DNA of 63,639 bases, the filler included, from Folioceros fuciformis (lineage: Eukaryota): NCBI GenBank assembly GCA_049999805.1. It is 10 parts of 10 records of this genome, joined end to end, with 100 filler letters (N's around TTAATTAATTAA, not from the genome) between each part and the next. Parts side by side here need not be neighbours in the genome. Positions count along the whole stretch, not along the records: positions 49,546 to 55,317 come from JBNGIO010001568.1; 9 more parts are not named here. One strand, given 5' to 3'. A program made the translations under genes and the position numbers. Below the pieces are notes generated by a model. The model saw only the letters and a list, made by a program, of their open reading frames with translations. It was not told the origin of the DNA and ran no database searches. Below are positions 43,983-56,229 of this stretch, piece by piece. Numbering within the stretch: position 1 is the first letter of the stretch; every line of letters starts with the position of its first letter.

Positions 43983-44225
43983 TCACATTCTATGGTAGGG
44001 CACTATCTTGCGACTTAGGAACACTCCTAATGTACATGTTCATATATCATACTCCTACAACATATTAATATGCACCAAGAGTTGTGCCTTACTACACAGT
44101 AGATGAGGAGACAGTAGGATTAGGAGACGAGTTAAGCGTGTGAGACAAGGTTATATTTTCTTTTATGGTTGGAATATTGTGAGGGGATTCACCACCAATT
44201 GGAAAGGGCTCGTCTACAATTCAAT

Positions 44226-44999
44226 ATGTCGTCGATCACATTTCAAGGACCTAGCTATTCTATCTCTCATTGGTATTTCACAAGGGAGCAGATAGAGTGC
44301 AATTCCCCCTCCAGAAAGGACAATATTAATTTGGAGAGAGAGACCTATTTCCGGAAATCCTATTGCGACTTTTTGCGACATCTTGGCAAGCAATTGAAAC
44401 TGCCCCACAATGCTATCGCATCAGCCATAGTTTTCTGTCATAGATTTTTCCTCCGCCAATCACATTTAAAGAATAATAGACTTACAGTTGCTACTATTTG
44501 CATGTTTCTGGCCACCAAAGTTGAGGGTGTCCAACGTGGTGTTGTTGAGGTAATTCGTTGTAGTTATCCATTACGATTTAAGGGTGATGAAAGTGCTCTG
44601 GAGCGGATGAAGTTGAAGCAAGAACAGGTGATTGAGGAGCAAAAGCAACTTATTTTGTGTGGTGAGCACCTCGTATTAAAAACTTTGAATTTTGACCTAG
44701 AAATTCATCATCCGTACAAGCCACTTTTAACTGCAAGCAAGATGTTAAAAGTATCAGATTACAATCGCATCCGACTAGTCCAATTAGCTTGGAACTTTGT
44801 GACTGATGCGTTGTGTACATCACTTCCAATGCAATTTGAACCTCATCACATTGCAGTTGGGGCAATCTTTCTTGCAGCAAAGTTCCTTAAGATTGATCTA
44901 TCCATTAATAGTGAACACCGACTTTGGTGGCATGGATTTAATGTCACCTTACGACAATTAAACGAAGTGAGTAATCAAGTCCTAGAAGTCTATGAATAA
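44226..44999 (+). CDS. CYCT1: Cyclin T1-like protein, intronless and lacking the C-terminal tail (probable retrocopy)
   Basis: WYFTREQIECNSPSRKD, ASAIVFCHRFFLRQSH, TLNFDLEIHHPYKPL, AWNFVTDALCTSL and PHHIAVGAIFLAAKFLK. The frame stops right after the second cyclin fold. Confidence 0.88.
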   Translation: MSSITFQGPSYSISHWYFTREQIECNSPSRKDNINLERETYFRKSYCDFLRHLGKQLKLPHNAIASAIVFCHRFFLRQSHLKNNRLTVATICMFLATKVEGVQRGVVEVIRCSYPLRFKGDESALERMKLKQEQVIEEQKQLILCGEHLVLKTLNFDLEIHHPYKPLLTASKMLKVSDYNRIRLVQLAWNFVTDALCTSLPMQFEPHHIAVGAIFLAAKFLKIDLSINSEHRLWWHGFNVTLRQLNEVSNQVLEVYE

Positions 45000-48792: not shown

Positions 48793-49545
48793 AGGTAAGT
48801 CCTATGCTTCTTTTTATCTACCATTAACTAGGTCTTTTTGGGATGGAGTCTATTGTTCTTGTATTGTTGTCTTCCTATATTATCAAAGAGCATTTTGCAA
48901 TGCTCCTTCAACCCTTAGTATTTTGCTTGCTTTTGTTGCTAAAGATATTATTTTATCCCCAAGATTTCCTTCTCTCTTTAAGGATTTTTTTGGCCACCAT
49001 TGGTCACCTTAGATTAGGAGATTGGGAGCTTTTGCAAGAGGAGATGGCTACACACCAAGTTATAAGTTGGATTTTGCTATAATGGATTTTGTTCATCTAG
49101 ATCGGGTAAAGATGTATTTCGAGAGATATTTATTATCAAGCTAGGCTAGAAAATTTCAAAGTTCCTTCTTTGTCTTGGGCTCCTTATTTGCAATCGGTGT
49201 GACTCTTTTTTAATATAAATCAATGGCTGATTAGTTGTCATATCAAAGTTGAATTGGCTCTTCTAAAGTAAATTAAATCTACTTAAAAAAGATATTATCC
49301 AAACAACTTCTCTAGCAGCTTCTACCATGATATCATATTTTATTTATGTAGAGAGAAGACAAATTTACTTCTATGATATCTTATCTAGTCCATCTTGGTA
49401 CGTGAATTAAGTGATTAATAGTTTATTGATGAGACTTTCTTCTTANNNNNNNNNNNNNNNNNNNNNNNNNNNNNNNNNNNNNNNNNNNNTTAATTAATTA
49501 ANNNNNNNNNNNNNNNNNNNNNNNNNNNNNNNNNNNNNNNNNNNN

Positions 49546-52500
49546 AACGAAACCCTAAGCAATGATTCAATACACTATCTTCCATTAGTTTGGAGGTCAG
49601 GATTACGACATATGGGTAATCCGCATGAAAGGGGCCTTACAAAATAGGAAGTTGTGGAAGGTAGTCACTGGGGAAGAGAAGGCCCCAGTGACCCCCACAC
49701 CTCCCACGTTACCTACAGCTGCTGAGAAAAAGTTAATTGATGCATGGGATGCAAAGGATGAGGCAGCTATGTTCCTCATCAAGAGTGGTCTTACCTCAGA
49801 GATGTTAAGACAGACTTCAGGATGTACAACCTCAGCACAAATATGGATAAGACTTCAAGACCTGTATGCAGGCAGCAACCAAACAAGTCAAATGACAGCT
49901 TTGAGAAATTTACAGTTATGTAAAATGAGAGAAGGAGAATCAATCGAAAAGCACCTTCGACACTTTAGGACACTTGTGTCCAGACTTGAAAGTGCTTCAA
50001 ACGAGGTTGTTAAAGATGATACACTAATACTTTACTTCCTCATATTCTTACCAGACTCTTGGTCACATTTTGTGACCTCCTTCAATGCCTCGAGACTCCA
50101 GACTGAGAAGCTTGCAAAGGCAGCAGGTGTAATCCTGCCGGAAACCAGCTTTGCAGAGTTAGTGGGAGCCTTATTGCAAGAGGAAGCAAGCAAATCTTAC
50201 AACAGACGAGCTGGTAAGCAGCAAGCCCTCTATACATCCAACAGAGGACGTGGAGGAGGAAGACCCTATAACAGGGGTGGGGGCAGTACCTCGAGAGGTG
50301 GTGGTTCACAAGGACGTGGAACCAGCCAGAGAAAACCCAAAAGGACAGGAACTTGCAACTGGTGCAAATTACCTGGTCATTGGGAGCGTGAGTGTAGGAA
50401 AAAGCAGGCTGGTGTACCTCGCAAGGAGGGTTCGACCAGTGCTGAGACTCACATGGTTGTTAAGAAGCAACCAACCCCCTCTGCCCTCACAGTTGGTACA
50501 ACTGTGTTTGCCACAAGTTCATCCTTGTCACCTGCTTGTTTGTCTGCAAATACAAAGGTTAAGTATACCATAGATTGGTACTTAGACACAGGGGCTACTG
50601 CCCATATTTGCCTAGACAGAAAAGCATTTCAAACGTACAAATCAGTTAAGGATCAGTACGTATACCTGGGGGATGACAGATCTCTGGTGTCTCCTGGCAT
50701 TGGAACAATAGAACTGCCTGTTCCATCAGGAAATGTATTAGTGTTGCATGACGTGTACTGTGTACCAGACATGACACGTAACCTCATTTCAGTCAGAAAG
50801 CTGAATTCTGATAATCACTGTCACATTCTCTTTACTCAAACAGAATGTCAAGTATTAGATGCCTTTAATCATACTAGAGTACTTGCCTTTGGGTCTTCTG
50901 AGAAGGACTTGTTCCGTCTACATACAGATAGAAGTATACCATTTTCTCATTTGACCAAGGATGCTACTCATGCACCTGCACAGCAAATAGAAAAGTCAAA
51001 ACTATGGCATTTACGATTAGGGCACCCACATTCAGCAAAATTACAGAAATTAGCTGTAAGTGATCTTTACCAGCATGGGCAGATAGGTCCTCTGGTGCCA
51101 CTTCCTTTGTGTGAGTCTTGTGTTCTCTCAAAGCGGCATCAAGCAACCTTTAAGAACAAAGAACTACACAGAGCTACAGATGTCCTGGAACTTGTTCATA
51201 CGGACTTATGTGGACCACTCTCACAAGAATCCATTGGTGGTGGCAAGTATTTCCTGACATTTACAGATGACAAGACAAGGTTTGTAACAACCTATATCTT
51301 AAAGCAAAAGAGTGAATGCTTCAGCTATTTTAAAGAATATCTCAAGTATGTTGAAAGGTGGACTGGAAAACAACTAAAAACCCTAAGATCTGATAACGGG
51401 GGAGAGTTTACCTCAAAGGAGTTTCAGGACTACTGTTTAACTGAGGGTATTGGACGCCAGCTTACAGTTGTCTACACGCCTTAACAGAATGGCATGGCTG
51501 AGCGCCTCAATCTTACGTTGCAGGAGATGACATCTTCTCTCCTACATCATGCTCAGCTGCCCCAGCCATATTGGGCAGAGGCCATTATGACATCAACCTA
51601 TCTCAAAAACAGACTGCCTACCACTTCAGTTGTTGATCTTACCCCTTATGAAGCGTTCACAGGGCGCAAGCCATCCATACTTCACTTGCGTATCTTTGGT
51701 TGTAAAGCATACGCCTTTGTTCCTAAGGAGAAAAGAAAGAAGCTATTAGACAAGGCTAGAAAACTTCTGATGTTAGGCTATACAGAGGGCATCAAAGCAT
51801 ATAAACTTTATGATATACCTAAAAATAAAGTTATCTATGCTAGGAGCGTTACTTTTGATGAAGGTAGCACTTGGGCCTCAGTGGGAGTATCCCAGGATCC
51901 TCCTCTTGGTGACGAAGAGGCATCAGCGTTTCAAGATTCACACTTTGACCAGACTGATCATGGCACTCAAGTTGTTCCTGTTGAGGATGTTGCCCCTGTG
52001 GGTGGGGTAGATCCGGCTGATGATATTGATGATTCAGCAGGTTTTGATGATGTAGCTGTAGAACCTGCACAACAAAATGTTCCAGACAATCATCAGGATC
52101 AACAGGACCATCATCCTCCAGAACCAATTGCTGATCCGACTGAGCCTACCTTAGATGCTGAGCTTGTTGACCCTCCAGTTGCTGAAGAACCAGTTAGAAG
52201 GTATCTCACCCGCCAGCGACAACCTCCTGACTACTACCGTGCTCCGGATTTCCGAGCTTCTTCTTCTCATGTGACTGTCAATGCTACCACTTCTCTTGAT
52301 CCCATTGAGCCTCAATCCTATGAAGAGGCGTTGCGTAGACCTGATCACAAAGAATGGGAAAAAGAAATTCAATCAGAGTATGACTCATTAATGGAGAACG
52401 GAACATGGGAACTAGTGGAGTTACCTCCAGAAAGAAAGCTAGTTTCATGCAAATGGGTTTTCAAACTGAAGGTTAAGGCAGATGGTACCTTCGATCGTTA

Positions 52501-55234
52501 CAAGGCTCGTTTGGTGGCAAGGGGATTCTCTCAGATCCCTAGCTTGGACTATCTTGAAACGTTTTCTCCAGTAGTCAAGTTGTCCACTCTTCGAATTATC
52601 CTTGCCATATCCACACATTACGATTATGAGTTGCAAATGTACGATGTCAAAACAGCTTTCTTATACGGCAAATTAGACACAGAAATATACATGCAGCAAC
52701 CGCCTGGATATGTAGTGAAGGGTAAAGCAAACTATGCCTGTAAGCTGATCAAGTGTATATATGGGTTAAAGCAGTCAGCTATGAAATGGAATGCTGCCCT
52801 AGATACAGAACTTCTACAGCTTGGATTCACAAAGAGCCAGGCAGACAGCAGTCTATACATATACTCGAAAGGAGAGGTTATATGCTATCTGGCAGTCTAC
52901 GTGGACAATTTGATACTATCCAGTAACAGTCAGGCCTTTATAACAAGCATTACAGATGTGTTGGCCACTAAGTTTAAAATGTCCTGTTTGGGACCCTTAC
53001 AGAGCTGCCTTGGAATACACATTCAGAGGGATAGAAAACAACGGGTTATGACTCTTACTCAACCACGTTACCTTCTTGATTGTGTTGAACAGCTAGGTTT
53101 AAAGGATGCCAAGCCTGCATCGACACCCATGGCAGCAGGTCAGAAACTTAGCAAGGCTATGTCATCAACTACACGTGATGAGAAAGAACAGATGAAGGGC
53201 GTACCTTACAGACAAGGTGTTGGCAAGCTTATATACGCTAGTAACACGACGAGACTTGAAATAGCTTATTCTACAAGTGTACTCTCCCAGTTCTTGGAAG
53301 ATCCAGGACTGGAGCATTGGACAAGTCTTAAGCGTGTGTTCAGATACCTGAAAGGAACACCCAGATTAGGTATCACGTACAAGTATCAAGAAGGAAAAGC
53401 ATTGGACCTGGAAGTCTTTACTGACTCTGATTATGCAGGTGACATTGATAGCAGAAAATCAGTATCTGGTTACCTGATTACAATTGCTGCAGGGCCAGTT
53501 TGCTGGTCAAGCAAAAAGCAGCCTACAGACGCTCTTTCTTCGACAGAAGCAGAGTATCGTGTACTGACTGCAGCAGCAAAAGAGGTAGTTTGGTGTAAGC
53601 TACTGTTTAAGGAGTTAGGCATCCCGATCCCAACTTGTACCACAATACAAACCGACAACCAAGGTTCGATGGCTTTAGCCAAGAATCCAGTGTTCCATGC
53701 ACGAACGAAACACGTGGAGGTGGAATACCATTACATCAGAGGACTGGTAGCAGAAGGAAAGATTGAACTTCAGTATGTCTCAACTCAAGAAAACCCGGCA
53801 GACATACTTACAAAGGCTTTGAGCAGAGATGCTCACAACAAGCACATTCAGCGTCTTGGTATGGGAGAGCCACAAGCCTTCTCATCCAGTACAATCTAAC
53901 AAGAAACCTAGCCTAAAACACCGGTGACTCATAGCCATCAAAATAAGCAGAGCATCCAAAGTCTATCTCGTCTCCAGACTGCTGGGATTCGGAAGTAGAC
54001 TCATCTTCTACTGGGTAAGGGTTGTGACAGCCACCAGGTGACAGATCTCCAGGAAAGCCAGGATGGACTCTTTTCTTGAGAGGGGTTTCTTCAACTCTCA
54101 GCCTTTCTTCCTTCTTAGCCTCCTCCCTGAGTCTGAGAGTAGACTCTGTATGTAAACTGAGAAACAAGAAGATTGTAAGTAATCCTGCAAAAGATAACAG
54201 CAACAAAAGGACTTGATACAACAAGCAAGAACAGCAGCAGCTACTTACTGTACGTGCTGACCACATGGACAGGGATGTTCTCACACACTTCGACCTTCAC
54301 GCGCTGCATCTTCAGTTCAGTAAGACCGACCCACACCAAATACCAGAAAGGTGAGCAAGGATGCTCCAGTGATCCACAAGTGACAATATGGGTCTTCATG
54401 AAGCCGTGCCTTGGCTTTGGGAACTTCGCAGGCACACGCCGTGCTGGGCCATCTTCGTAGTAAGCAAAATCAAGGTTCAGAACTCTAACCAGAGGGGTGT
54501 ATCCAGTCTGTGGCGGCGGAGAAGACTCGTGAGTGTCCATATATTGCTGACCAACAGCAAGTTCAACATTGCGCCGCTCCAAGACTTTTTTGGTTGTCCC
54601 CTTCGGCCTGTTGACAGCTCGCTTGCTACAGGAAGCCTTCGTCTCAGCGTTTTGATCACTTCTGGTAGTTGTCTTAGTCGCAAATCTTCCTAGGGCGTCA
54701 CGCTTGTGACGGCGGCGGTGCTTGGGAGCATCGGAATCAGAACCAGAAGACATGATGAAGAGAAGGCACGAGATCCAGCACTCCAGCAGCTCAGACAATG
54801 CAAGAGACAAGAACCAGCTGAGTTTTATGAAAGCGGCGGCATCACCACCAGAACTCATCATGCTCAGCTGGAGAACATGGAGCACAACTGTGTACAGATG
54901 TCTTTGGGACGTAACACGCAGTTGAAGTAACGTTCACGAGGACTGAGCGGCGGCGTACCGTGCGCCGGAACGTACACCTAAATCATTATCAGCAAGTGGG
55001 AGTGTTAAAGAGTATTCGCATACGTATGCTGATGATATTTAGGGCACGTTTGGTTAGCTTAAGTGAGATTAATAAGGTCACAACGCTTGGTTAGGGTTAC
55101 GCCCATTAGACGTGTCTTTTGAGTTCATTAATAAAAAAAACTCACTTTAAGAAATTATTAATTAATGTTCTTTAATATACATTTCAGATGTAATTGATCA
55201 ACATGTTGATTTAATCTGCATATTCATTTAATCA
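49546..55234 (+). mobile_element. Near full-length Ty1/copia element: gag-pol 49562-53899, PPT ~54994-55002, LTR 55003-55234
   Basis: Domain order gag, zinc knuckle, PR, IN, RT, RH (CNWCKLPGHWEREC, LDTGAT, HTDLCGP, SDNGGE, ADILTK). Stops at 49586-49588 and 51482-51484; RT motif reads YVDN. Confidence 0.96.
53913..54753 (-). CDS. Putative spliced antisense gene inside the copia element (exons 54753-54249 and 54184-53913; 258 aa)
   Basis: A 64-nt GTAAGT...TTTTGCAG intron (54185-54248) joins the 214-aa and 123-aa minus-strand ORFs in frame. Confidence 0.65.
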
Positions 55235-55238
55235 AAAA

Positions 55239-55250
55239 TGGTATCAGAGC
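55239..55250 (+). promoter_or_regulatory. Primer-binding site (Met-i tRNA) directly after the LTR at 55003-55234
   Basis: ...AATCA-AAAA-TGGTATCAGAGC. Confidence 0.85.
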
Positions 55251-56229
55251 AGGTTATATGCAATCTTCATGTTATTTGATGCATATTACAAAATGCATTT
55301 AAAAAGAATGTATTTACNNNNNNNNNNNNNNNNNNNNNNNNNNNNNNNNNNNNNNNNNNNNTTAATTAATTAANNNNNNNNNNNNNNNNNNNNNNNNNNN
55401 NNNNNNNNNNNNNNNNNTGGAAGGCAGCAATAGGGAGGGATCTCTTAACCCGACTCAAGATCAAAACTTGCAGCAGTTCCGATCCTGCAGTGGAATTAGC
55501 AGGTTGCACCCCAGCAGCTTACGAGAAGCCTGGCTGGATCTGCATCCGTCCGTCGTGATCTCCAGCACCTGGTGTCGATAGCCTAGCTGTCATCCCTACC
55601 TGCAACTTGGATCCAAGGAAGAAACAGGGAGGGAGATTGAGAAGAAAGGGAGGAAGAAGAAGAAGGGGGGACAAGAGGAAAATGGAGGAGGAAGGGAGAA
55701 AGGGAGGGAGGAGGAGAGGGAAGGGAGCGGCCGCAGCCCCTGCCTCTAGCCCTAGCTAGGGCACAGCCTCCATGACCATTCAGGCCAGCCTGGCAATCAG
55801 CCAGCCTGATGTCAGACTCTGACCCCTGACCCTGACATACCCCACATATTCCCGTTCCTATGTTCAAACCATTATTTATTATTCTATTATTATTCTATTA
55901 TTATTTAAATCATTTAATACTATATACCTTCAATTAATATTAAACCAATCCCCAAACCTATATACAAACTTTCCCGACCCTATGGCCTGGTACTAGACCT
56001 AAACTTTCCCAAGTCTGGGACCAAACCTATACCCACTCTTATAACCAAACCAACTATTTCCTAGTTAATTAACTTAATTAGCACAAAGAGAAAAATAAAA
56101 AAAGACCAGAAAATAAAGGAAAATTAGGGAAAAGAAGTAGAAAAAGAAAACCAAGGCACACCACTATTAACCCTTTTTCAACCAAAACAAACCACTACCC
56201 CAAGCTTTGGAGGTTCACAGCTAGGGCCA

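Follow-up and report, generated by a model that had tools for sequence, protein, structure and literature searches.

Antisense open reading frames (ORFs) lying between pol and the 3' long terminal repeat (LTR), termed aORF-3R, have been described in maize Grande (gene23), rice RIRE2, Silene Retand and PvRetro13, where they occupy the same position and orientation in most copies of a family, are conserved and have their own antisense transcript; the maize Grande protein is nuclear, and the functions of these antisense accessory genes are still an open question (PMC7264820; here and below, statements attributed to a paper hold for the available sections of it). These elements belong to Ty3/gypsy (for Retand, according to PMC11963269; for the others we take this to be so). 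The TRP28 protein of Retand (PF04195) is predicted to bind DNA (PMC11963269), and Boty, a gypsy element of the fungus Botrytis, carries brtn, an antisense third gene, which can be set beside the present one by description only (PMC8365987). Plant Ty1/copia elements are regarded as carrying gag-pol only, save the extra 3' ORF of SIRE, which has a possible membrane helix and is a sense ORF (74% eORF-3'F vs. 1% eORF-3'R; PMC6317226). Here we describe a spliced antisense gene located behind the pol of a Ty1/copia element of Folioceros fuciformis (assembly GCA_049999805.1), which is included in a stretch of 63,639 nucleotides (nt), called the window below (Table 1). What is new is a lineage-wide, spliced antisense gene under selection in copia; what was known is the presence of antisense ORFs behind the pol of gypsy elements.

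Like the aORF-3R, this gene is antisense between pol and the 3' LTR and is present and conserved in most of the copies of its main clade, but its host is a copia element, its pol-LTR interval is about 1.1 kb instead of 2.9-6.6 kb (PMC7264820), and it has a conserved intron and an unrelated domain. It shares with TRP28 a lineage-wide antisense location and predicted DNA binding, whereas the host of TRP28 is gypsy and the word "intron" does not occur in the main text of PMC11963269; no match to PF04195 was found in Pfam for the copia protein at E values up to 1. The earlier note on this DNA had stated that extra antisense 3' ORFs are mainly known from gypsy and that those of copia are sense; the present gene is antisense in all 74 type-A elements scored. 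As regards the likeness to SIRE, a transmembrane test gave one hydrophobic helix in the upstream extension of the protein, absent in one subfamily. The REXdb survey, which applied a cut-off of 250 codons, reported antisense 3' ORFs in 1% of SIRE and gave no value for other copia lineages, its Bianca and Ikeros rows being incompletely parsed here (PMC6317226). Since the exons of the present gene have 168-204 and 77 codons, it would have been missed, and spliced antisense copia genes hidden by this cut-off may be common yet unannotated. No paper on such a gene was found in the literature searched, and none is mentioned in the available sections of PMC12786077, PMC13547354 and PMC12477816.

Two minus-strand ORFs had been noticed between the pol stop and the polypurine tract (PPT) and LTR, and a 64-nt intron had been proposed to fuse them into 258 amino acids (aa). 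Both ORFs are present, the antisense stop lies 13 nt from that of pol, and the GT..AG join does give 258 aa without a stop, but its acceptor is not the conserved one. In every subfamily with a placed exon 2, this exon begins at the position homologous to 54145, so that the conserved acceptor is at 54146; the acceptor at 54185 was rejected as the conserved one on the basis of this homology and of the frame around the 64-nt acceptor, which is closed in the diverged relatives L013/L014 (read by eye). Being in frame and 39 nt upstream, this AG could be a minor alternative acceptor. The product thus has 245 aa from the ATG at 54753, the Met of which is near-invariant in the family, or 281 aa from that at 54861, as far as which the frame is open. 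The donor is A|GTAAGT at 54249/54248. Since the conserved acceptor is 54146, LLTIFLFLSLH, which had been taken for a central hydrophobic segment of the protein, is the pyrimidine tract of the intron, while the basic N-terminal KHRRRHKRDALGRF, NRPKG and the acidic tail are all present in the product.

Selection on the protein was estimated from the 66 codons at the end of exon 1, in 57 rows of which 53 are distinct. The maximum-likelihood omega was 0.235 in the frame of the gene; four other frames gave 1.03-1.60, and the shadow frame, i.e., the opposite-strand frame with common third positions, gave 0.375. Stops numbered 15 in the frame of the gene vs. 69-241 in the others (139 in the shadow frame). 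The ratio of nonsynonymous to synonymous substitution rates (dN/dS) was 0.17-0.25 for pairs 60-85% identical, and pairs more alike than this gave 0.37-0.44. When the domain and RNase H were compared in 40 matched elements, the former had an omega of 0.196 and the latter one of 0.083. Within the first 20 codons of exon 2 (51 rows), the frame of the gene has 2 stops, and the shifted frames have 40 and 144. The conservation of the antisense ORF is far beyond chance, and the protein is under purifying selection.

When the 87-Mb assembly was searched with exon 1, 101 of 111 candidates were matches, at identities down to about 26%. A census anchored on RNase H gave 149 distinct copia elements, 74 of which carry the domain present in the window (type A), always antisense and 150-700 nt behind RNase H. 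Among the other 75, contig ends cut 21 and no type-A match was found in 54; these 75 include 24 elements with a different antisense ORF called type C, 8 with an unrelated gene called type B, and 27 full-length and 16 short flanks that are empty, some with type-A remnants. In a quick RNase H tree (144 rows), type A spans three clades with RNase H 49-100% identical: it occurs in 55 of the 78 rows of the main clade (support 99; of the remaining rows, 8 are type B, 8 are truncated and 7 have none), in 12/16 of a sister clade (support 98) and in 4/6 of a distant group. Type B nests inside the main clade, and type C occupies two other clades. The identity of the domain tracks that of RNase H (Mantel r 0.89 in 59 elements, with none of 999 permutations as high); since the two co-diverge, the gene has been inherited together with pol.

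Type B (L132 and L134-L140, e.g., L135:1210-1827, minus strand) is a helical antisense gene with GTAAG donor sites and an omega of 0.10 (8 rows). Type C (L119:1162-1572, L178:1685-2092, L195, and L183) is a short conserved antisense ORF with an omega of 0.15 (12 rows) which aligns almost gap-free with type A, the profile support being weak (hhalign P 0.002, probability 13%); of the 14 copies matched as far as the terminal Tyr, 5 have a donor-like site in an identical phase, whereas the other 9 lack it and read on. Type C is a probable distant homolog of type A. In L109 (C6374), an element with an uninterrupted gag-pol of 1465 aa, an antisense ORF that contains RDKRGRF, but in which no beta domain was detected, lies 750-1300 nt behind RNase H.

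The donor falls at the same position throughout the family, one base after the same Tyr codon (phase 1). It reads GT in 64 of the 73 distinct junction regions (TT in 5, AT in 2, GC and CT in 1 each), and the acceptor reads AG in 52 of the 61 cases scored (AA in 8, a deletion in 1), a partly circular score since exon 2 was placed by protein similarity. The 61 placed introns are 76-262 nt long, and read-through is blocked in all of them. The same phase-1 donor was present in 14 of the 16 copies of two distant type-A clades, and the sister clade containing L107, L114, L121, and L167 (RNase H 53-57% identical to the window) appears to have further upstream introns and at least three exons. An antisense intron is not spliced out of the sense genomic RNA and hence persists through retrotransposition; this argument, made in the earlier note, follows from established LTR-retrotransposon biology.

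Part of a contig of 1450 nt from run X1 matches the paralog L016 exactly. On L016, this contig covers positions 105-850 and 989-1341; it skips the predicted 138 nt, which are GT..AG on the antisense strand, and then continues into RNase H. Since no intronless type-A copy occurs among the 73 junction regions, splicing of the antisense intron is the simplest reading of this gap. Its first base lies some 50 nt inside the PPT of L016, which fits an antisense start at the LTR edge, although contigs cannot show where a transcript starts; a search for an antisense TATA box at a constant distance was negative. With purifying selection in the family and a homologous intron skipped in this contig, the central claim of an element-encoded, spliced antisense gene stands, and the gene itself is almost certainly real. 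Most sibling copies keep the donor and acceptor, and their dN/dS is about 0.2.

The same contig extends antisense to RNase H over several hundred bases, as might be expected if the protein or a pol-overlapping antisense RNA restrained the copy number. Ty1 is restrained by antisense RNAs (PMC12786077), and a subfamily with a dead donor has multiplied. A role of the RNA only, however, cannot account for a dN/dS of 0.2 or for the in-frame joining of the exons, and a purely restrictive gene would be expected to be lost by the elements carrying it, so that self-limitation seems quite improbable.

The complement of the PPT core, CTCCCACT (sense strand AGTGGGAG), was found in 43 of the 61 type-A introns vs. 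0.5% in shuffles, mostly 17-21 nt before the acceptor; it is absent from the subfamily of the window. The motif lies just behind pol in type-B elements, and L139 joins a type-A exon-2 remnant, the motif and a type-B gene. This pattern suggests that the intronic core may prime the plus strand a second time or mark a site where crossover exchanges the cassette. Such a sense-strand constraint is also what would be expected if the ORF had no protein function and were a by-product of sense-strand cis elements, but this explanation is scarcely credible, being already contradicted by the dN/dS, the depletion of stops, the frame-preserving splice sites despite varied intron lengths, and the X1 joint.

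The protein consists of a basic region, a variable linker, a domain of about 70 aa and, after a charged helix, a tail rich in Ser and acidic residues. We take KHRRRHKR to be a pattern resembling a nuclear localization signal and GRP[RK]GT to be AT-hook-like; RDxxGRF is present in 44 of the 69 loci with enough upstream sequence. The AlphaFold model of type A, without exon 2, has a mean predicted local distance difference test (pLDDT) score of 73.6, with a core of about 90. For the predicted beta domain, no relative was found in Pfam, PDB, BFVD or by sequence, and no significant fold match, and it appears to form a family without a match in the libraries searched. Its spacing, TKIV..WYK..P.HVVSFY.R.L, resembles that of chromo shadow domains, and a divergent module of this kind might dimerise and decoy HP1/LHP1 partners, as an anti-silencing device. 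We consider this very improbable. The terminal HVVSxY motif is modelled as a strand, not a helix, in both AlphaFold models, and no Pfam or PDB profile matched; no chromo or chromo-shadow entry was among the matches listed, the type-A queries being without exon 2. No chromo shadow sequence was found in G000 for comparison. A chromodomain gene without a detectable chromo shadow domain lies next to a copia insertion at L227:1522-2586 (C5635); its KRKSGSVKR motif is presumably LHP1-like.

These motifs, counted together with the AT-rich LTRs, suggest that the protein may enter the nucleus, bind DNA or chromatin of the family to which its element belongs and keep this family transcribed, a reading to which we give a probability of roughly 0.4. 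The antisense transcript would start near the 3' LTR/PPT edge, be spliced once and extend into the 3' end of pol, while the intron, invisible to the sense genomic RNA, would be copied at each retrotransposition. The 245-aa form would be imported via the basic cluster, RDxxGRF and the AT-hook-like motif would hold the AT-rich LTRs, and the beta domain would, together with the charged helix and acidic tail, recruit or block host chromatin factors. As selection acts on elements during retrotransposition, the protein would have to help its family; it would act partly in trans, so that subfamilies with a dead gene could still spread. VANC proteins act by anti-silencing. As a fast-evolving, family-specific accessory factor, VANC (VANDAL/MuDR; PMC13547354) may be a functional analogue, but it belongs to a DNA transposon and is of MAIN-related origin, and no similarity was found.

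An integration or nuclear-import cofactor, binding integrase or cDNA and steering insertion to certain chromatin as the chromodomains of gypsy do, would fit the co-divergence of the domain with pol and the basic and AT-hook-like motifs, and conserved targeting domains are absent from plant copia integrases (PMC12786077). It is nevertheless unlikely, elements with a dead or replaced gene having still amplified.

Several points weigh against the nuclear reading. The NRPKG motif of the window departs from the canonical AT-hook, and the number of AT-hooks is not calibrated against chance. That X1 is RNA is a guess, and the gene of the window has no cover in it. A stop at the conserved Trp is common to L016 and L030, and there the X1 contig shows no difference (8 letters are missing nearby), so the only transcript seen, which is L016-like, probably makes no full protein and is non-coding. 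Stops per 1000 codons in the 40 matched elements were 4.9 in the domain vs. 2.1 in RNase H. Eight elements have replaced the type-A gene by the unrelated type B. The L023-L029 subfamily (C3222, C2813, C178, C6032, C6113, and C6109), with TT at the donor in all its copies (5 distinct junctions), has multiplied, because of which the antisense gene is dispensable in cis; with 93-96% identity to the window in reverse transcriptase (RT) and about 80% in RNase H, this subfamily is recombinant. Lastly, the conserved hydrophobic leader points toward a membrane role. It showed 5 stops in frame vs. 27-81 in the other frames (34 rows) and a dN/dS of 0.45-0.67, and may possibly be a membrane anchor of the long isoform. 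If this long form were the main product, it might tether particles or integration complexes to the endoplasmic reticulum or the nuclear envelope, or aid cell-to-cell movement as an env-like or movement protein; we consider this rather unlikely, the leader being weakly constrained and absent in one subfamily.

Taken jointly, the data might also describe an ancient gene with a new beta domain and a phase-1 intron common to its copies. It would lie antisense in most of the copia clades found in this lineage, in an exchangeable slot between two PPT copies where unrelated spliced antisense genes can take its place, and would have nuclear and membrane-anchored isoforms that counter silencing or steer integration. 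This broader reading is tentative and somewhat doubtful; if true, copia would have a retrovirus-like accessory-gene locus overlooked by surveys based on ORF length. As test material for the function of such genes, the system has the advantages that its protein is compact, that its domain is new, and that subfamilies with loss of function and elements with a replaced gene occur naturally.

Table 1. Features of the Ty1/copia element and its antisense gene (window positions).
Feature	Position	Strand	Basis or remark
Ty1/copia element	49546-55317		JBNGIO010001568.1 part of the window
LTR end of type-B sister element, abutting gag at contig start	49546..49587	-	42 nt identical in L135, L136, L137, L140
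gag-pol (gag, protease, integrase, RT, RNase H)	49589..53899	+	Defective copy; pol stop 53899
Exon 2, encoding a charged helix (xSxxRLxEE, conserved) and a Ser/acidic tail	53913..54145	-	Stop 53915-53913
Intron, 103 nt, phase 1, GTAAGT..TACAG	54146..54248	-	Homology; homologous 138-nt intron skipped in X1 contig
64-nt intron of the earlier note	54185..54248	-	Possible alternative acceptor, in frame; conservation does not extend to diverged subfamilies
Exon 1 coding region	54249..54861	-	In-frame ATG 54861; conserved second ATG 54753
Conserved domain, about 70 aa, predicted small beta sheet	54250..54474	-	AlphaFold pLDDT 88-94, residues 41-95
NRPKGT; family form GRP[RK]GT	54595..54612	-	Alignment; RGRP core in some subfamilies
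Basic cluster KHRRRHKR + RDxxGRF motif	54682..54723	-	Sequence, alignment
Hydrophobic/amphipathic leader helix, conserved in frame	54754..54840	-	Stop depletion, dN/dS
PPT AAGTGGGAG	54994..55002	+	Sequence
AT-rich LTR (TG..CA)	55003..55234	+	
Primer binding site (PBS)-like TGGTATCAGAGC	55239-55250		Directly behind 3' LTR

The element of the window was matched by Pfam Retrotran_gag_2, Pol_BBD, gag_pre-integrs, rve, and RVT_2, and its gag-protease-integrase-RT-RNase H order together with the PPT, the LTR, and the PBS-like motif places it in Ty1/copia; its pol is 31-46% identical to the best 150 matches among 1.8 billion representatives. YVDD is changed to YVDN at 52898, as had been noticed. Of the two gag-pol stops reported at the same time, only that at 51482-51484 is internal, the other (49586-49588) lying at the junction with the foreign LTR end.

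The PBS-like motif behind the 3' LTR suggests a tandem unit or a collapsed assembly and, together with the head-to-tail units spaced 6925 nt apart in L105 (C4366), tandem arrays with a common LTR. When 12 loci were scanned for paired LTRs, 5 had a pair 95-98% alike. Some LTRs start with TA instead of TG (window 49546-49587, type-B LTRs, and several type-A LTRs), and ACCCTAA motifs, which we take to be telo-box-like, are frequent in the LTRs of the copia elements examined. The window joins separate contigs at 9 places by N44-TTAATTAATTAA-N44 spacers (e.g., 49446-49545), across which adjacency is not shown. Elsewhere in the window, two long single-ORF host-like genes are present, one encoding a UfSP2 peptidase C78 (12392-14287) and the other cyclin T-like (44136-44999).
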